A stretch of DNA of 64,000 bases from a virus, in UHGV virus genome UHGV-0023958; one strand, written 5' to 3'. A program made the translations under genes and the position numbers. Of the stretch, positions 3,523 through 64,000 are shown in pieces. Positions within the stretch are counted from its first letter, which is position 1, and each line of letters starts with the position of its first letter. The notes under the pieces are model-generated. The model was not told the DNA's origin. It worked only from the letters and a program-made list of their open reading frames with translations, and did not search any database.

Positions 3523-3921
3523 ATCTATTTCTGTGCGAATCATAAACAAAATCAAAAATTTAAAGATGAAGATTTTTGAATATGAAGACGAAGAACCAGA
3601 ATATGTAAACAGAAGGGCTGTTGCAATTTGCGATAGACACATTGAAAAATATCTTGCAAACGTTACACCTTATGAATCTGAAAGAAAAGAATTACGAGAA
3701 AATATTAAGTGGACTTGTGATAACTGCATGGAGAAATTAGAAAAACTTGGTTGGGAAGTTTATGGGCAATTATGAGTTTGAAGAATTTGTAAAAATTCTT
3801 AAGTGGGAAATACAAAAATATACCGTGAATCAAAAGATGAATGGAAAAGAGATAAATCCAGAAAACATTATTGATTTGATTGTCAAATGTGAAAATAAAG
3901 CAATAAAAAAATACTTTACAG

Positions 3922-4425
3922 GTGAAAATAATGAAAGGAATTGAAGTTTACAGAGGAAAAGTTGTTGACGAAGACGAATACGTGCAGGGTATATTAATCG
4001 GAGAAGATCAAATCTTTCAATATACAGAAGATGGTGAGTGGTCAGTAAATTGCGGCATCGGTTGTTTTTCTATCATACCAGAAACGATTGCGTATTGTGG
4101 AAAAATGGATATTGGAGATTTGACGGTTCTTCCGAGAACGGAAGAAGTGCAAGAATATCTGAAAAACCTTCCAAAATTTTATCTCGTTGCTTGTTGGGCG
4201 AGATATGGAGTTGTTGAATTTCCGTATAGCGGGAAAGATGTATTTGACGAAAAAGAGGGGTATGTTCCGTTGATATGGGAGTACGATGACCACAATGGGA
4301 CTTCCGACGAATATTATTTAAGAAAAATAACGGACACCACAACAGCTTCGATTTGGAATTGGTATAATAATAAATCAGTAGCAGAAGATGTAGCGAAAAA
4401 ACTTAACGAAAAATTCGATAAGTGA
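3922..4425 (+). CDS. hypothetical protein
   Basis: 167-codon ORF; antisense ORFs inside judged spurious. Confidence 0.45.
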   Translation: MKIMKGIEVYRGKVVDEDEYVQGILIGEDQIFQYTEDGEWSVNCGIGCFSIIPETIAYCGKMDIGDLTVLPRTEEVQEYLKNLPKFYLVACWARYGVVEFPYSGKDVFDEKEGYVPLIWEYDDHNGTSDEYYLRKITDTTTASIWNWYNNKSVAEDVAKKLNEKFDK

Positions 4426-4435
4426 AAATAATTTC

Positions 4436-4465
4436 AAAAAGTCAATCAAAATCGGTTGACTTTTT
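4436..4465 (+). terminator. terminator hairpin fused to the next promoter's -35
   Basis: AAAAAGTCAATC-aaaat-CGGTTGACTTTTT. Confidence 0.5.
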
Positions 4466-4484
4466 GTTTTGATTGTGCTATACT
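4456..4484 (+). promoter_or_regulatory. sigma70-type promoter
   Basis: TTGACT(4456-4461) -17- TATACT(4479-4484); SD AAAGGAGAG then ATG 4515. Confidence 0.6.
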
Positions 4485-4514
4485 AATTATAACGAATCTT
4501 AAAGGAGAGAGTTT

Positions 4515-4904
4515 ATGAAGAAAGAATATGGTTTCAGACACGCAGAATTCAATTGCGAGTATAGATATCCGATTATTTTTCATCCGATTCATAATTTCAA
4601 AGAATGGAAAGCTTATCGGTGGCGCAGAAAATATCTTTTAAAAAACGGTTTCGGACCAGAAGCATTTTGGGATACGGATCATTGGTTTGTTGATGTTATG
4701 CTTGAGATTTTAAAGAAACATTATGAATGGAGCAAAGAAAACCTGGATTCAAAAAATAATGAAGGTGTAGCAAATTTTCAAAAAGATCTTGCCCGTATGA
4801 TTGAAATTTTGGAATTTAAAAAAGATGAAAACGAAGCAGATGTGATTACTGACAGCGAATTTTTTAAATTACTTCAAAAGAGACTTCCTTTTTTATGGAA
4901 TTAG
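4515..4904 (+). CDS. hypothetical protein; the only gene I found that ends in TAG
   Basis: 129-codon ORF; stop TAG 4902-4904 abuts the left end of the IS element. Confidence 0.5.
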   Translation: MKKEYGFRHAEFNCEYRYPIIFHPIHNFKEWKAYRWRRKYLLKNGFGPEAFWDTDHWFVDVMLEILKKHYEWSKENLDSKNNEGVANFQKDLARMIEILEFKKDENEADVITDSEFFKLLQKRLPFLWN

Positions 4905-6235
4905 CGCAAGAAAATCCGTGACTTTAGTCGTGGGATGAATTGCGCGTAACAAGTTATGGAAGTAACTCGCGATAGAGAGTATGTTTACTCGATTCAATAT
5001 CACACAAAGAGGAGGTGAAGAATGTGGGAAAAGCTTATAAATATCGTATATATCCGAATGAAAAGCAGAAAGAGATAATAGCAAAGACATTTGGTTGTTG
5101 CCGTTTTGTATATAATAAGTATCTTGCGCAGAGAATTGAATTATATCAAACAAATAAATAGAGTTTGTCATACGTTAAGTGTGCAAAAGAAATATCTAAA
5201 TTAAAAGACGAACTTGAATGGCTTAAGGAAGTTGATTCCACGGCTCTTCAATCTTCCCTCAAAGATTTAGATAATACTTATCAGAAATTCTTTAAAGAAC
5301 ATACAGGATTTCCGAACTTCAAAAGTAAGAAAACGCACAGATATTCTTACAAATCTAGATATGTGAACGATAACATAAAATACCTCGGTAAATATATCAA
5401 ACTTCCAAAACTCGGATTGGTAAAAACGAAAAACAAGTTAATACCACAAGGAAGAATAGTAAATGTAACGATTTCTCAAGAACCAAGTGGTAAATATTAT
5501 GTTTCATTGTGTTGTGTAGATGTTGAAATAAAAGCATTACCAACAACTGGTAACACAATAGGCATAGATTTAGGAATTAAAGAATTTTGCATAACAAGTG
5601 ACGGAAAACTTGTGAACAATCCGAAATATCTTAAAAACTCGTTAAATAAACTTACAAAGTTGCAAAGAGAATTATCTCGAAAACCAAAAGATAGTTCTAA
5701 TCGTAACAAAGCAAGAATAAAAGTAGCAAGATTATACGAGAAAATTTCAAACCAGCGTAAAGACTTTTTACAAAAACTCTCAACCAATATCATTCGAGAA
5801 AACGATGTAATTTGCATTGAAGATTTGCAGGTGAAGAATATGGTTAAAAATCATAAGCTTGCACAGGCAATTAACGATGTTTCTTGGTCGGAATTTGTTC
5901 GAGAGTTAGAATATAAAGCACATTGGCATGGTAAGTTAGTTATTAAGGTTGATAGATTTTTTCCTAGTTCTCAAACTTGTAGTATTTGTGGATATAAGAA
6001 CGAGGAAACAAAAGATCTAAAAGTAAGAGAATGGGATTGTCCAGTTTGTCATACTCATCACGACAGAGATGTGAACGCTGCGATAAACATTCTTAATGAA
6101 GGACTAAAGCAATTAGCTTAAATATAAGAACCGCAGGAACTGTGGGGATAGCTTGGTAAATATTCTGACAGTAGTTGGAAGTTCCCAAGAATCTCACGGC
6201 TTTTAGCCGTGAGAGGTCCAAGGGATTAAAATAAT
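4905..6235 (+). mobile_element. IS200/IS605-family TnpB-only insertion element (no tnpA) with subterminal right-end hairpin
   Basis: TnpB ORF plus perfect 8-bp hairpin CTCACGGC-TTTTA-GCCGTGAG at 6193-6213 downstream of the stop, typical right-end/omegaRNA region; left boundary approximate. Confidence 0.55.
5024..6121 (+). CDS. tnpB: TnpB (IS605 OrfB, RuvC-like plus zinc finger) carrying one in-frame TAG at 5159-5161
   Basis: N-terminus [31 protein letters not shown] from GTG 5024, in frame through TAG into the 5165 ORF; RuvC motifs [27 protein letters not shown]; C-terminal CSICG..CPVCH zinc finger. Confidence 0.75.
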
Positions 6236-7051
6236 ATGACAGAACAAGAAATTTTTAATAGAGTAAAAGAGCACCACGAAGAAGCTAAATCATTAGGATA
6301 TAATGTCGTTGCAACTATTCTTCAAGGTTCACAGAATTACGGTCTTGAAATTGATTGCGAAGAATATCATTCTGATGTAGATACAAAATGTATCATAATT
6401 CCTAGTTTCGATGATTTTTGTTCTAATAAAGGTAGAATTTCTACTACGTATGTTCGGGCAAACAATGAACATATTGATTTAAAGGATGTTGGAACGTTAT
6501 TTGAATTGTTTAGGAAAGCAAATGTAAATATTCTTGAAATATTATTTTCAAAATATTATATTGTTGAATCAGATTACAAAGACTGGTTTGAAAAACTTCG
6601 TAGTTACGGAGAGCGTATTTGTAGTGCGAATAAGTGTCAAACATTCAGAACTATGTCTGGTTTGTCAATGGAAAAATACAAAGCACTTAAACATCCTTAT
6701 CCCTCAATTATTGATAAGATTGAAAAATATGGATATGACGGAAAACAACTTCATCATATTTTGCGTATAGCTAATTTCATCGGAAGATATTATCGTGGAG
6801 AAAGATTTAAAGATTGTCTGAAAGTCCATAAAAATTCTCGTGAGAATATGGATAAAGCAAAACTGAACTGGTTTTCTCTTGGTACGGCGGAATCTCTTGC
6901 AAAGATGTGGGACGATTTCACGAAAGAAATCAAAGATAAGTATTGCGAAGAACATAAAAACGATCCTATCGACGAAAAGATGTACGAAATTTTAAACAAA
7001 ATGAAAGTAGAAGCATACAAAGTGGCATTTAGAAAAGAATTGTCTCTGTAA
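6236..7051 (+). CDS. putative Pol-beta-superfamily nucleotidyltransferase
   Basis: GSQNYGLEIDCEEYHSDVDT resembles the GS..(D/E)xD nucleotidyltransferase signature; function not assignable. Confidence 0.35.
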   Translation: MTEQEIFNRVKEHHEEAKSLGYNVVATILQGSQNYGLEIDCEEYHSDVDTKCIIIPSFDDFCSNKGRISTTYVRANNEHIDLKDVGTLFELFRKANVNILEILFSKYYIVESDYKDWFEKLRSYGERICSANKCQTFRTMSGLSMEKYKALKHPYPSIIDKIEKYGYDGKQLHHILRIANFIGRYYRGERFKDCLKVHKNSRENMDKAKLNWFSLGTAESLAKMWDDFTKEIKDKYCEEHKNDPIDEKMYEILNKMKVEAYKVAFRKELSL

Positions 7052-7342
7052 AACAAGGTGAATTATTATGGAAAATGTAGTATTTTTTGAAACCGATAAA
7101 GATTTAAAGAAACTAACCGGTGTGAAAGATTTTAAAGAACTTTGGGATGAAGGCTGGGATTTGGATGATTGGGATTTCGGTATTCAGACTGAAGAAGAGT
7201 GGGATGAAATGAATCCAAATTCTAAATATTATGATGATTGGAAACATTTTTATCGCTGGTGCATGGAAAATATGATGAATACGTTCCAGGTAGGTCATTA
7301 TACGCATAATGGGAAACATTATTATTTTAAACATCATTAACT

Positions 7343-7771
7343 ATGTTTAGCGAGAAGAAAATAAATAAATATTTTGAGCTTGCAAAGAACGCTTCGAAGT
7401 TCTCGGATTTCCATAAACAGAAGATTGGTGCAATTATTGTAAATAAAAACCACGTTGTGTCTGTCGGTTGGAATACACAAAAAACTTCTACGATGCAAAA
7501 GCAATACAATAAAAGTATTTCAAAGCCTTGGATAGACACTTCACCGAATTGTATGCACGCCGAAATAAACGCGTTACAAAGATTACCAAAGCAACTACGC
7601 GATGATTTATCTAAGAGCCACCTGTTTGTTTATCGAGAAAGTAATGGCGTAAAGAGATTAGCGAAACCTTGTAAGGCATGTGAAAAAGCATTAAGAGATT
7701 TCGGGATTACGAATGTTCATTACACAGGATTGAATTCTTTTGTTTATGAAAAATATTTAGAGGGAGAATGA
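7343..7771 (+). CDS. dCMP (deoxycytidylate) deaminase
   Basis: zinc-deaminase motifs CMHAEINAL and PCKACEKAL; IGAIIV..GWN core. Confidence 0.65.
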   Translation: MFSEKKINKYFELAKNASKFSDFHKQKIGAIIVNKNHVVSVGWNTQKTSTMQKQYNKSISKPWIDTSPNCMHAEINALQRLPKQLRDDLSKSHLFVYRESNGVKRLAKPCKACEKALRDFGITNVHYTGLNSFVYEKYLEGE

Positions 7772-58307: not shown

Positions 58308-58868
58308 ATGAAAGATAAAAAAATGGAAAAAGAAATTTTAGATGTATATGATATATTCGAAAAACATAAAGATGAAAATTTTGAAGAAATCTTTACAAAT
58401 TATAAAGAAGAATTTGAAAAATCTTTACCTTCGTTGCCAGATGGAGATTATAAAGTAAAGATTTTAAATAAACTTTACGATAATTATGTAAATGTTGAAA
58501 ATCAAGAACATAAATTGATAAAGTTTTATAAAGAGGAAGATGATTTCATAAAAACAATTGAAAATAAAGATATGAAAGCACTCTTTTATTCATTCTATGC
58601 GCTCCATAAATTAAATATGCACGAGAGCGGTTGGGATAGTTATGATATAGACAAATTGCGCGAATTATCGGGCATTGAGAAGCTCAAATGCGAAGATTTG
58701 CCGCCAGTTTTGAAATATGGAATTCAACTTCGTGTGAGCGGAAGCAAAAAACCGACGCAAACCTTTCATATTGATAACGGAGTTGAAGGAAAGGAAATTT
58801 CGTGGAGTTGCTTCGACGATACTTTTAAAGAACGAATGAGGAGGCTGGTTTATGGAGATTGTAAATAA
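58308..58868 (+). CDS. hypothetical protein
   Basis: ORF track. Confidence 0.45.
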   Translation: MKDKKMEKEILDVYDIFEKHKDENFEEIFTNYKEEFEKSLPSLPDGDYKVKILNKLYDNYVNVENQEHKLIKFYKEEDDFIKTIENKDMKALFYSFYALHKLNMHESGWDSYDIDKLRELSGIEKLKCEDLPPVLKYGIQLRVSGSKKPTQTFHIDNGVEGKEISWSCFDDTFKERMRRLVYGDCK

Positions 58869-59625
58869 ATTAGAAGCAATTAAATATATGCTGAATAATA
58901 AATCTTACATTCCCGAATTGAGTACAAATAAATAGGATGCCTGGCTCTTATATTATTTAAGAAAGAAGAAGGGAAAAGATAAAGACGAAGCATATAAGAT
59001 TTGGCTTCCGATTTATGAAACAGTACACGAAAAATCTTCCAAGGGCGAATACCTTGGTGTCTTTTGGAATAAGTGGAAAACTTCCGCTTCAACCGTCCGT
59101 TTAAACAAACAAAATATTGCAACGATTTATCAAGAAGAGATTGATAGAATAAATAAATGCGACGTTAAAGCAACTTGGCAGAAGCAGTTATTGTTATTGA
59201 TTTTGGTTTATGCGAAAATGACAAACAATTTCAGATTAAGCGAAATTAATCTCGGCCTTTTCGCGAAATATATCGGAAAGAAAACGAAAGATATTACCGA
59301 AAATCTTTCTTACTCAATGACGCAAGAAGCGATTAAAAACGAGATATTCGAAATGGTTGAAATAAAGGAGTGGGATGATATTGAAGGTTGCTGGGAAACG
59401 AGTAGATATTTCAATATTCACGAATTTAAGAATGGCGAAGTCATTTGTAATATATGGAACGGCTATCAAGTAAAAGAATTAGATCATTTGTTTCCTATTA
59501 TTAAAACTTGCGAGAATTGCGGAAGCGAGTTTCGACCGAGTTCTCGTGGAAAAACTTGTTTATGTGAAAGATGTTATAAGAGAAAAAGATATGATTTCCA
59601 AAACTCTTTTCATATTGTTAAGTAA
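58852..59625 (+). CDS. hypothetical protein with C-terminal zinc ribbon; one in-frame TAG at 58933-58935
   Basis: SD GAGGAGG then ATG 58852; reading frame open from 58852 to 59625 except the single TAG (codon 28); C-terminal CENCG..CLCERC. Confidence 0.5.
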
Positions 59626-59760: not shown

Positions 59761-59836
59761 GCTTTCATGGCTCAATTGGTAGAGCATTTGATTTGTAATC
59801 AAAGGATTCTCGGTTCAAGTCCGAGTGGAAGCTCCA
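59761..59836 (+). tRNA. tRNA-Thr (anticodon UGU), CCA encoded
   Basis: cloverleaf: acceptor GCTTTCA/TGGAAGC, D-stem GCTC/GAGC, anticodon stem TTTGA/TCAAA with loop TTTGTAA, T-arm CTCGG-TTCAAGT-CCGAG, discriminator T then CCA. Confidence 0.7.
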
Positions 59837-61172: not shown

Positions 61173-62453
61173 ATGATTTTTAAAAAAACACCAGTAGATA
61201 AAAAGTATGATGCTGCTGGCGATGATGAAGATGGTTTATCTTCTGAAAAATACCCTCCTCTTGGGAATTTTAACACCGTAAGACAACAAGGCGGTTGTTT
61301 TGGGTGTGGGGCAATACGAAAAATCTCATCTTATCCCATCGTTCATCCAAAAAGCGGCTGGGGTTTGATGGATAAAAACGGCAAAAAACACTTTGTGTTT
61401 TGTGAAAATTGTTTTGCAAAGTTAATAGATCAATATACCGAAGAGGCGCATGGAAATAAATATAAAGCTTTATATCGTATGTGTATGTATACAGGTTATT
61501 ATTACGATGATAAGCTTGCACACAGGGTTATAGAAGAAGAACATAAATATGACGATAACACTCCAGTTCCAAAATCCTATCACTGGGGCTTGCTTTATAA
61601 TAAAGCAGTTCGCGAAGATTTGATACTTTCTGATAAGACATTTTACGATTCCGATAATATTATGTTTGAGGAAGTTGTAAAATATCATAATCAACACAGC
61701 GTTGAAGATTTAATGTCTGACGAAGATAAAAACAATAGAATTACAATTTTGTCAGTCTTTCACTGTGATCCGTTTGAAGACGAAGAATTATTGGATAGAG
61801 TTAAATTACAAAACGACCTTGTAACAATGATTGACGATTCAATGGCGGACGATATGGTTCGTCAAAAGGCGGCAATCGAAATCGTTCGTTCGTTTCATCG
61901 TATCGATAAAATTAGTAAAGCTTTACAAGAATTACAAACAGATAAAGATACAATGCTCGAACATACAAAAGAGATTAAAGAGTTGTCTGAAACTAAACAA
62001 AAAGAAACAAGCTTGGTAACTCAATTCTCAAAAGACCACGGGTTTGCCGAAAAATACGCCACTGCAAAATCAAGAGGTTCTGGTTCACTTGGTTATATTA
62101 TAAAAGAAATGAACGAGAAAGGATATGATAGGGGTGCTGTCAATAAATTTGATATAGACACGGCAGCGGCAATGAAACAGGTTGCGGATATAAGTTCTTC
62201 ATCAATGGCGAAACAAGTTGCGCTTAGTGATTCTGATAAAGCTGCTATGATAAAAGATCAATCGATAATGATTAATCGAATGAGAGAAACGATGGAAAAA
62301 CAAGCTGAAGAATTAAGACTACTTCGTGAAAAACATTTGAAATCTGAATTATTAGACGAGTATAAAAAAGATTTGAAAGATAAAGGTTTAAATGAAGAAC
62401 AAATAGATAGAGCTGTTAAAGAAGAATTAGATAGAAGGATACCAGTTGTATAA
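61173..62453 (+). CDS. hypothetical zinc-ribbon/coiled-coil protein; possible terminase small subunit by position
   Basis: immediately upstream of and coupled (TAATG) to terL; N-terminal CFGCG..CENCF, long charged C-terminal helix. Confidence 0.3.
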   Translation: MIFKKTPVDKKYDAAGDDEDGLSSEKYPPLGNFNTVRQQGGCFGCGAIRKISSYPIVHPKSGWGLMDKNGKKHFVFCENCFAKLIDQYTEEAHGNKYKALYRMCMYTGYYYDDKLAHRVIEEEHKYDDNTPVPKSYHWGLLYNKAVREDLILSDKTFYDSDNIMFEEVVKYHNQHSVEDLMSDEDKNNRITILSVFHCDPFEDEELLDRVKLQNDLVTMIDDSMADDMVRQKAAIEIVRSFHRIDKISKALQELQTDKDTMLEHTKEIKELSETKQKETSLVTQFSKDHGFAEKYATAKSRGSGSLGYIIKEMNEKGYDRGAVNKFDIDTAAAMKQVADISSSSMAKQVALSDSDKAAMIKDQSIMINRMRETMEKQAEELRLLREKHLKSELLDEYKKDLKDKGLNEEQIDRAVKEELDRRIPVV

Positions 62454-64000
62454 TGATAAGTGTATATAAGAATTCTACCGAAATAGAAGTAACTACTCGT
62501 CGTGCTGAAATTTTTGAAAAATATAATAAAGTAATTCAATACGGAAGAAGAAACCCAGTGTGGTTTATAGAAGAGATTTTTAAAGTTCCACTTTTGGATT
62601 ATCAAAAATATATTATAATGAACTCCTGGACTAAATAGCGTGCGATATGGGTATGTTCTCGTAACGCGGGTAAGTCCATGATGGGTGCATTATATACTAT
62701 GACAAAAGCATTATTGTTTCCGTCTTTTGAATGTTGGTTTATGTCTTTGAGTGCAAATCAGGCACAGACAACATTTAAAAAATTGGAAGATATTGCTAAA
62801 AAGAATATACCCTCACTTATTGGTTCAAGTGATGTTTTTATGAATGAAACCGTAAAATTACAAGCAAATTCTGACGGTTTCACACATCAAAAATCAAACC
62901 ATGAAGTAAAACTTTATAACGGTTCTCATATTACAACGTTGGCTGGTAAACCAGAAACAACCGTTGGTATGCGAAGCCATTTGAGCGTATATGATGAAGC
63001 TGGTAAAATTTCTGCTGAATATTATGGTTTAACAGAACCATTTGCAACGCAAGATACCAACTTCAAAACTGGTGAAAAAATTGATTTGAACGTTATTCCA
63101 AAAATGATTCCAACACAACTTCTTTATATGTCTTCTGCGGAAGATACCTCTTCATATTTATGGGATATTTATAAAGAAGGCGCGAAGAGAATGATGATGG
63201 GTGATAACACTTGGTTTGTCGCAGATATAAATTGTGAAATTCCGTTACACCCTACAAAAGGCGGTAAGCCGTATGCTCCACTGTTAAATCAACAGGTTGT
63301 TGATGACGCTATGCGTGTAAACGAATATAAAGCATTGAGAGAATATTATAATATATTTGATACTACTGGTGGTAACGATGCTGTTATCAATAGAACTATT
63401 ATTATGAGAAACGAAGAAGAGTATCTTCCTGTTTTTGCTAACGATAACACGGTTACGCCAGGAGACAGAATATATGCTTTGTGTTTCGATCCTGCTTTGA
63501 TGTCGGATAACTCAATTATCTTGATTGGAGAACTGACGAAAAAAGACGGAGTTGGTTGGACTGGAAGAATAGTAAATTGCATCAACCTTATTGAATCTTT
63601 AAATAACGGAGAGAAGAAAATTTTGACAGCAGTTGAACAAGTCGAGCGTTTAAAGAAATTGATTATTGATTATAATGGAAACGCACCAGAGTATAAGAAT
63701 TTAACAATATTTATAGATCCTGGTTCTGGTGGTGGCGGACATATATATTCAGATATTCTTATGCAGAATTTTGTTGATGAATATGGAATTAGACACTTTG
63801 GTTTAATCGACCTGGAAGATGAGAAATCTGCTTTGGAACAAAACAAATTCCCACTCGCTGTAAGAGATGTTTTACATTTGTATACTGCAACAAAATATAA
63901 AAATGAGTTTTACAGTGCGGTAACAACAATGTGCGAACAGGATTTGGTTAAATTTCCTTACACAGATTCGTTCGGTTCTAAAAACTTTACTATAAACGGA
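62453..64000 (+). CDS. terL: terminase large subunit (partial, runs off window) with one in-frame TAG at 62636-62638
   Basis: 61-codon N-terminal ORF ends at TAG; same frame continues RAIWVCSRNAGKSMMGALY (Walker A) .. HLSVYDEAGKI (Walker B) to the window end. Confidence 0.7.

Follow-up and report, generated by a model that had tools for sequence, protein, structure and literature searches.

A tnpB-only IS200/IS605-type element with an in-frame TAG in its tnpB gene, inserted in the genome of a phage whose clade appears to read TAG as glutamine

The stretch of DNA analysed here, called the window throughout, comprises 64,000 nucleotides (nt) of the virus genome UHGV-0023958. At positions 4897..6221, on the + strand, it contains an element of the IS200/IS605 family of insertion sequences (IS), from which tnpA has been deleted and whose only gene, tnpB, is crossed by an in-frame TAG codon, probably read as glutamine (Gln). 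An earlier note on this DNA had described a TnpB-only IS605-like element at 4905-6235. Its identity is borne out by Pfam domains, by a match to the ISDra2 TnpB structures, by the omegaRNA, by the target-adjacent motif (TAM) and by both ends of the element, all described below; the element does lie in the region indicated, and its exact coordinates had to be corrected to 4897-6221 (equivalently 4904-6228).

The correction derives from the comparison with uninterrupted alleles in related phages. Seven close relatives were compared at the locus, which is that of an RlaP-like gene: the site is occupied in four of them (L013, L014, L016, L018) and empty in the other three (L015, L017, L019). Measured against the empty sites, the inserted block is 1325 base pairs (bp) long in each occupied genome, including a further relative, L223. 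Since 7 nt are repeated at both junctions, 4897-6221 and 4904-6228 are equally valid parses, and the former was chosen on the basis of family alignments, for which about 25-50 copies of the tnpB family, from unrelated insertion sites, were used. On the 3' side, family conservation ends at ...GAGAGGTTCAA, while the bases beyond vary at every insertion site; the copies finish in TTCAA, and the right end in the window is GGTCCAA, with 6221 as its last base. On the 5' side, the element is directly preceded by TTTAT (4892..4896, + strand), the TAM and TnpA target motif. A first parse, 4904-6228 with ATTA as target, was dropped, as the family alignments identify TTTAT as the TAM and 6221 as the right end. 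Where the left end of a family copy is identifiable, TTTAT almost always lies about 33-35 nt away from the hairpin of that end, and the insertion sites concerned are unrelated; in L223 the motif is TTTGT.

The left end contains a subterminal imperfect hairpin (4904..4946, + strand), with an outer stem GCGCAA/TTGCGC and an inner one CCGTGAC/GTCGTGG (4916-4933), showing compensating changes across copies, such as ATCAC/GTGAT and GCCAC/GTGGT, as judged by eye and not by a formal count. With the hairpin at the right end (6192-6214), subterminal imperfect hairpins are present at both ends and terminal inverted repeats are absent, as in IS605 elements. Also within the left end, positions 4957..5004 (+ strand) encode MEVTRDREYVYSIQYH, corresponding to the first 16 codons of a tnpA, as they match the N-terminus (MEVTHGRGYVYSIQYH...) of the intact TnpA of 133 amino acids (aa) from the sister copy L043, which is recognised as Y1_Tnp with 149 bits. 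Intact tnpA-tnpB sister copies are found on other phage contigs (L043-L046). Further copies were also looked for: the window holds no second tnpB and no tnpA, and no tnpA was found in the sampled loci of the clade. At the sequence level the element is a non-autonomous tnpA-deletion derivative of IS605, and conforms to the IS200/IS605 TnpB family except for the missing TnpA and a short target-derived repeat, described below. An IStron, i.e. a group I intron fused to an IS605 element, was considered and rejected: only about 127 nt separate the left boundary from the tnpB start, and a search of region 4800-6400 against Rfam, at E up to 1, found no group I intron.

The tnpB coding sequence (5024..6121, + strand) consists of 365 codons, with a GTG start located 9 nt after the ribosome-binding site (RBS) AGGAGG (5009-5014). 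The start at 5024 matches 365-aa homologues and the family alignment; taking this GTG as the true start, the TAG is codon 46. The frame 4976-6123 is open but for this single TAG (5159-5161), located where the earlier note had placed it and in frame both with the 48-aa N-terminal piece (5015/5024..5158) and with the 318-aa remainder (5165..6121), as reading of the frame and alignment with homologues confirm. Three Pfam domains are found in the read-through protein, all above their cut-offs: HTH_OrfB_IS605 (PF12323, 75.7 bits, residues 1-48), which ends exactly at the TAG, OrfB_IS605 (PF01385, 109 bits) and Cas12f1-like_TNB (PF07282, 91.3 bits). The protein aligns end to end (residues 2-361, E 3.7e-102) with the ISDra2 TnpB structures 8exa/8h1j; for the catalytic residues, the alignment used was that of a close AI-designed homologue with the same numbering. 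The RuvC residues D182, E266 and D349 align on D191, E278 and D361, which we take to be the numbers of the catalytic residues of ISDra2 TnpB, and the zinc cysteines C319, C322, C339 and C342 are kept. The intact RuvC residues and zinc finger reported earlier are thus both found in this alignment, and a nuclease-dead repressor of the TldR type was rejected because the catalytic triad is intact. The copies of tnpB with at least 85% protein identity to that of the window are all located on viral contigs, and the best bacterial match among 185,579 bacterial species genomes is 76% identical (Clostridia, Lachnospiraceae metagenome-assembled genomes, C. difficile). The transcript probably starts from a promoter-like site at 4456-4484, ahead of the upstream gene; in the promoter scan, which as a whole performed no better than chance, the left end holds no better match.

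The 3' end of the element encodes an omegaRNA scaffold (6131..6221, + strand), ending in GGTCCAA, which may extend further 5' into the open reading frame (ORF). Folding of this region by RNAalifold, on 24 family sequences, predicts four helices (6131-6136/6140-6145, 6152-6156/6185-6189, 6163-6169/6174-6180 and 6192-6199/6207-6214), with a total of 26 pairs, 14 of which show compensatory double changes. The perfect hairpin that had been noticed at 6193-6213 (CTCACGGCT/AGCCGTGAG) and assigned to the omegaRNA region is present and corresponds to the last covarying helix. No Rfam model reaches its threshold in the omegaRNA region. The scaffold is followed by the guide template GGGATTAAAATAATAT (6222..6237, + strand), which equals the right flank, as family sequences diverge right after TTCAA; the value of about 16 nt adopted for the guide is that of ISDra2 (PMC13565253).

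Some additional features were observed around the right end. Positions 6125-6260 show a weak Rfam match to Ref70, Enterococcus small RNA (sRNA) 70 (27 bits versus a gathering score of 115, E 0.039); the Ref70 family might in turn represent an omegaRNA of TnpB. With respect to L223, the right-end hairpin has an inverted loop (6200-6206; GGC TTTTA GCC vs GGC TAAAA GCC) on an unchanged stem. The RlaP-like nucleotidyltransferase gene (6236..7051, + strand; RNA repair pathway DNA polymerase beta family, PF10127, 31.6 bits) lies directly downstream, with both its RBS and its start codon within the guide template of the omegaRNA.

On the left side, the element is adjacent to a 129-aa gene without Pfam matches (4515..4904, + strand), ending with TAG at 4902-4904. 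The earlier note had pointed at it as the single TAG-terminated gene, and it is the only credible one among 130 greedily selected ORFs of the window. In the empty alleles the same gene ends with TGG AAT TAA, TGG GAT TAA or TGG AAC TAA, running directly into AAATAATATG. A canonical IS605 insertion after TTTAT would remove the last two codons and the stop of this gene. The left-end tip, GGAATTA (4897..4903, + strand), is a copy of the 7 nt with which the right flank begins (GGGATTA at 6222-6228; GGAATTA in L223) and restores TGG AAT TA (Trp-Asn-TA); the next base of the element being G, the resulting stop is TAG. The upstream TAG stop is therefore a by-product of the insertion and not an independent property of the gene. 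If this TAG were read as Gln, the upstream protein would be extended by 15 aa, to the TAA at 4947-4949. IS605 elements insert without target-site duplication, and here 7 nt of the target are found at both junctions. Target-derived tips are also found in L040/L042 (8 nt) and in L062 (5 nt), while L038, a sister allele at the same site as L040, has an ordinary tip; all together, tips of 5-8 nt occur at 3 of about 19 distinct insertion sites, as compared by eye, with a chance expectation far below one. We read the tip as a secondary feature of the left end, not as a sign of a different transposition chemistry. It might have originated from a break induced by TnpB on the left side and resolved imprecisely through microhomology, or from later selection restoring the end of the gene.

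The possibility that TAG is a sense codon in this phage was evaluated independently of tnpB. The window has a GC content of 33% and is densely coding under the standard code. Among the 130 ORFs mentioned above, 92 end in TAA, 35 in TGA and 3 in TAG, and none of the three TAG ends is native: one belongs to the gene beside the IS, one to a 61-aa N-terminal fragment of the large terminase TerL and one to a doubtful 51-aa ORF. The TerL gene (62453..64000, + strand), identified by tblastn and comparison with relatives, runs off the window and contains an in-frame TAG at 62636-62638, after which the frame passes straight into the Walker A motif (...NSWTK#RAIWVCSRNAGKS, where # is the TAG); a Bacillus phage TerL aligns by tblastn in one piece across it. 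In 12 related IMG/VR contigs of 95-148 kb, mostly from one sample, the TerL TAG is present in 10, and the two most divergent contigs have CAA (L008) and CAG (L009) in its place. A second gene (58852..59625, + strand) has an in-frame TAG at 58933-58935, conserved in 11/11 relatives, with synonymous changes on both sides and 85 codons without a start codon after the TAG. Downstream of TerL, 48 in-frame TAG sites were listed in the late genes of the relatives, the list being partly redundant as the two sets of loci overlap: the alternative codon is CAA at 25 and CAG at 24 of them, each other codon occurring at no more than 3 sites (GAG at 2).

The relatives also encode a tRNA(CUA) of 75 nt, of the Gln type, featuring a U1.C72 mismatch, G73 and an encoded CCA. 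It was found in 10/10 relatives sampled (L234-L243), with one compensatory change in the T stem in L241; its neighbours in those loci, on the same strand, are a DNA methylase gene on one side and replication genes of the AAA_24/DnaB type on the other. The suppressor was not found around TerL, around the RlaP-like gene or around other tnpB copies, nor in the tRNA cluster following the RecD-like gene, where only tRNA genes for Gln(UUG), Asn, Ala and the like are present. The idea that the tRNA-Gln(UUG) of the phage might read UAG as a near-cognate codon was dropped when the genuine tRNA(CUA) was found further upstream. A read-through context was also discarded: all three TAGs of the window follow an AAA Lys codon (5150-5161, 58924-58935, 62627-62638), and this context is absent at the TAG sites of the relatives. 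Two of the three share the 12-mer ACAAATAAATAG; the AAA/ACAAATAAATAG context may be a coincidence. A candidate TAG in the early region of L016 (16220) proved to mark the boundary of a gene, with an RBS after it.

A low GC content, the loss of TAG as a stop, a suppressor tRNA and late genes containing the recoded codons have been described for recoded phages (Borges et al., bioRxiv 10.1101/2021.08.26.457843); peptide evidence for Gln at TAG comes from metaproteomics, as in PMC9523058. By its sequence features, the clade belongs with the TAG-to-Gln phages that Borges et al. described, and its recoding is light: the 64 kb of the window contain 3 in-frame TAGs. Megablast of positions 3900-7400 found no match among GenBank phages, and the clade is known from metagenomes only; it is SPbeta-like, and its hosts are probably Bacillota. 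The ENA contig carrying the protein P0033, evaluated as a possible member, was assigned to another SPbeta-like clade, its RecD-like gene being only 44% identical to that of the present clade.

Other peculiarities of the tRNA genes were observed in the clade. Each genome (L207-L216 and L222, at about 15.6-17.4 kb in each locus) contains 1-3 tRNA-Gln(UUG) genes, belonging to three unrelated sequence types, two of which have non-canonical T loops; L214 and L222 also contain a degenerate Gln-like tRNA with a 6-nt anticodon loop. Such an excess of Gln tRNAs is unusual in a phage that also reads TAG as Gln. The window itself encodes a tRNA-Thr(UGU) (59761-59836), just upstream of the block containing TerL. 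In L004 (6993-7197), L006 and L007 a 129-nt insert interrupts the anticodon loop of the same tRNA. The insert is itself tRNA-like (33.8 bits in Rfam, exceeding the gathering score): acceptor, D and T arms are present, while a 65-nt hairpin takes the place of the anticodon arm. In L005 the 5' half of the tRNA-Thr is replaced by an unrelated gene.

The tnpB TAG at 5159..5161 (+ strand), for which a change from GAG (Glu) to a codon for Gln is proposed on the basis of the relatives and of L223, is common to the window and to the four occupied close relatives. The closest database protein (P0001), 96% identical, has Glu at the corresponding column. Its 2.5 kb contig is L223, a more divergent relative which contains the same insertion at the same site, with GAG as codon. 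The divergence between window and L223 is 15.6% in the left flank, 6.7% in the right flank and 4.2% in the element. As L223 contains the insertion with GAG, the TAG arose by a single G-to-T change, after the element had settled in the phage lineage. The long residence in recoded phages that the earlier note had suggested is supported by this ortholog, by the exclusively viral location of copies at or above 85% identity and by the other phage tnpB genes containing TAG, described below. The residue at the TAG column, which had been indicated as a point to check, is variable in homologues: mostly Glu or Lys, with Gln in L088 and in a paralogue found in L232. Gln should therefore be tolerated at position 46.

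The constraint acting on tnpB was estimated by comparing the available copies. With respect to L223, 32-35 synonymous and 12-15 nonsynonymous differences were counted, for a dN/dS (ratio of nonsynonymous to synonymous substitution rates) of 0.09-0.11. The five copies carrying the TAG are polymorphic at 8 synonymous and 10 nonsynonymous sites (dN/dS about 0.3), to be compared with a neutral expectation of about 14/18 nonsynonymous (binomial P 0.017). No other stop and no frameshift is present in the five copies, so that the further disrupting lesions expected for a truly inactivated gene were looked for and not found. These results provide modest evidence that tnpB has been still constrained after gaining the TAG.

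The window copy is not the only phage tnpB in this condition, as at least three others contain in-frame TAGs, several of them at conserved Gln columns. That of L061 has two, one of them in place of the Gln codon in the conserved motif YQKFF, and 1.2 kb downstream lies a tRNA(CUA) gene; that of L080 has a TAG at the Gln of KLQR. A paralogue 43% identical to the window TnpB, located in the late-gene region of a clade member (L232:1963-3048 / L009:14392-15477), contains two TAGs, its catalytic motifs being intact. The tnpB insertions differ from one clade member to another. From sequence comparison, the presence of TAG as an apparent sense codon is a recurrent trait of tnpB genes residing in amber-recoded phages.

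Two further observations concern other tnpB genes. In the copy found on a 193 kb phage contig (IMGVR_UViG_3300045988_150231; L059:3001-3954), TGA stands where the EWLKEVD motif has its invariant Trp, a sign that this phage may read TGA as Trp; if so, a single tnpB family lives in phages of two different recodings. In a related SPbeta-like clade (ENA ERZ15610551 NODE_107; L181:1-21098) three full-length tnpB genes are present in 21 kb, among replication genes (near DnaB, Thy1 and Pol III alpha), and an HNH gene splits an AAA_24 gene, the region being heavily colonised by selfish nucleases.

All together, the locus is best explained as a tnpA-less TnpB element residing in a TAG-to-Gln phage, in which the TAG at codon 46 of tnpB is a sense codon for Gln and synthesis of full-length TnpB requires the suppressor tRNA; we assign to this reading a probability of about 75%. 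Under this explanation, the change from GAG to TAG after settlement at the site would amount, in this phage, to a Glu-to-Gln substitution at a variable column, with ...LYQTNKQSLSYVK... as the predicted peptide across codon 46, and the full-length protein would be producible only where the suppressor is present. By analogy with RNA-guided cutting and homing by ISDra2 and related elements (PMC10055086; PMC13565253), TnpB and the omegaRNA would cut TTTAT followed by GGGATTAAAATAATAT, i.e. the empty site. The cut would drive or keep the insertion, during co-infection or after excision, and repair from an occupied genome would copy the element in. In the absence of tnpA, transposition would occur only in trans. 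There is a good case for the nuclease not being producible outside an infected cell or a cell otherwise expressing a suppressor.

Several points weigh on the other side. Most of about 80 phage-borne copies of the family have no in-frame stop. The TAG column is occupied by Glu or Lys, and not by Gln, in the closest homologues, so that the site alone is no proof of decoding as Gln. The window contains no suppressor tRNA, its only tRNA being the tRNA-Thr; the tRNA(CUA) locus lies outside the window, and its presence in this genome is therefore deduced from the ten relatives. The site counts within the TAG-bearing copies are small, and the window copy has 3-4 derived nonsynonymous changes, 3 of them clustered at 5466-5555, and no synonymous ones, a pattern which could reflect relaxed constraint or gene conversion. 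Finally, the three empty alleles all deviate from the perfect combination of TAM and guide target (L015 has TTTGT as TAM, L017 two mismatches close to the TAM, L019 CTTAT together with an insertion of 3 nt), so that current homing is not demonstrable; such deviations are what resistance to homing would look like, and with three alleles they prove nothing.

Among the alternatives, one that we regard as rather improbable is that the TAG gates or attenuates TnpB, the full-length protein being made after build-up of the tRNA, or at the efficiency of suppression, so that the nuclease would be active in the lytic cycle only and off in a lysogen or in any standard-code cell. A role of stop-codon recoding in the regulation of late genes has been proposed (bioRxiv 10.1101/2021.08.26.457843), and termination at such an early codon would leave only a 45-residue N-terminal fragment. 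The TAG is also fixed in all five genomes of the sub-clade; common descent, however, explains fixation in close relatives, and most sister tnpB copies have no TAG. The position of the suppressor tRNA, among methylase, AAA_24 and DnaB-type replication genes and not beside the late genes, indicates no clear temporal separation; because of this location in the replication module, no strong case can be made for a late timing of TnpB.

A broader version, which we hold to be doubtful to the same degree, is that guide-RNA nucleases of recoded phages are generally locked to the code of the phage. It is based on the independent presence of TAG in at least four phage tnpB genes, that of the window included. 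TnpB would then act as a code-gated homing drive, active in lytic co-infection and silent in standard-code cells and lysogens, and the target-derived tips of the window, L040 and L062 would be scars of a recombination-based insertion triggered by TnpB, rather than of transposition by TnpA.

The decoding of TAG by the clade is what mostly separates the sense-codon explanation from a still less probable one, namely that the TAG is an inactivating nonsense mutation, tnpB a drifting pseudogene and the element a harmless passenger persisting because unable to excise. In its favour, one random transversion is enough to turn GAG into TAG, tnpA is missing from the element, tnpB is the sole TAG-containing gene in an otherwise TAG-free early and middle part of the window, and the derived changes of the window copy fit a gene no longer under selection. 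The clade, however, tolerates TAG in TerL and at dozens of late-gene sites and encodes a tRNA(CUA), and the ribosomes of an infected cell should read the tnpB TAG as well; as TAG is decoded as Gln and the tRNA encoded, a simple knock-out appears very unlikely. The five copies have no second lesion and their polymorphism is biased to synonymous sites at the significance level given above; both ends and the omegaRNA are intact, and the element is less diverged than either of its flanks. Least probable of all is that the element is no longer engaged in selfish homing and serves the phage as an RNA-guided weapon against relatives lacking the insertion, or as a regulator: the polymorphism of the insertion among co-occurring relatives from one sample, the different tnpB insertions of different clade members and the known killing of competitors by phage homing endonucleases (PMC13565253) would fit, but the intact catalytic triad excludes a nuclease-dead repressor of the TldR type, the guide is the plain adjacent flank, as in any IS605 element, and killing and homing are indistinguishable from sequence.

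The element and the recoding are each of a known kind, and their combination is expected once a mobile element inhabits a recoded genome; a full-text search of a collection of papers found none linking TnpB and stop-codon recoding. The locus offers a clean and datable case of a selfish element acquiring the alternative code of its host phage, with GAG in L223 and TAG in five copies. It bears on the idea that recoding isolates phage genes, as a recoded tnpB would be unable to work once transferred to a bacterium or to a phage using the standard code. Gene callers using code 11 split such tnpB and TerL genes, and surveys of TnpB in viromes will miss them or call them pseudogenes. As occupied and empty alleles occur in nature and both TAM (TTTAT) and guide are defined, homing between phages driven by TnpB lends itself to direct testing.

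Among known systems, the closest term of comparison is represented by ISDra2 and the IS608-type elements, with which the element shares the fold family of TnpB, an omegaRNA (also named reRNA) derived from the 3' end of the gene and the right end, an AT-rich 5-nt TAM abutting the left end, a TCAA-like right end (TTCAA/TCCAA) and subterminal hairpins at both ends. It differs from them in that tnpA is reduced to 16 codons, the TAM is TTTAT instead of TTGAT or TTAC, the element is phage-borne and the TAG in its gene would need a suppressor tRNA; in addition, the 7-nt target copy at the left-end tip is not a product of canonical peel-and-paste insertion. As in IS1341-type elements and other tnpB-only derivatives of IS605, tnpB stands alone between IS605-like ends and TnpA would be needed in trans; unlike in those, the internal deletion is directly visible here, by virtue of the remnant at 4957-5004 and of the intact sister copies L043-L046.

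Gut phages reading TAG as Gln (code 15), such as crAss-like, Lak, Agate and others, have reportedly been described by Ivanova (2014), Borges (2021/2022) and Peters (2022). The clade resembles them in its low GC, in the abandonment of TAG as a stop, in the in-frame TAGs of terminase and structural genes, alternating with CAA/CAG, in the phage-encoded Gln-type tRNA(CUA) and in the TAG-free replication module. It differs in the very light recoding, in belonging to an SPbeta-like clade and in having TAG also in a mobile-element gene of the early/middle region.

Like the Seg/Mob homing endonuclease genes of T-even phages, the element is a selfish nuclease gene located between conserved phage genes, polymorphic among close relatives and expected, here by analogy, to spread in co-infection by cutting the allele that lacks it; unlike in Seg/Mob, target recognition would be operated by a guide RNA and a TAM, and not by the protein. 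Finally, IStrons (CdISt1, Clostridioides/Clostridium) also have a clostridial IS605-type tnpB, with C. difficile TnpB proteins among the homologues found here, and also cause minimal damage to the interrupted gene; unlike in IStrons, there is no group I intron, and damage is avoided here by inserting at a stop codon and rebuilding it.

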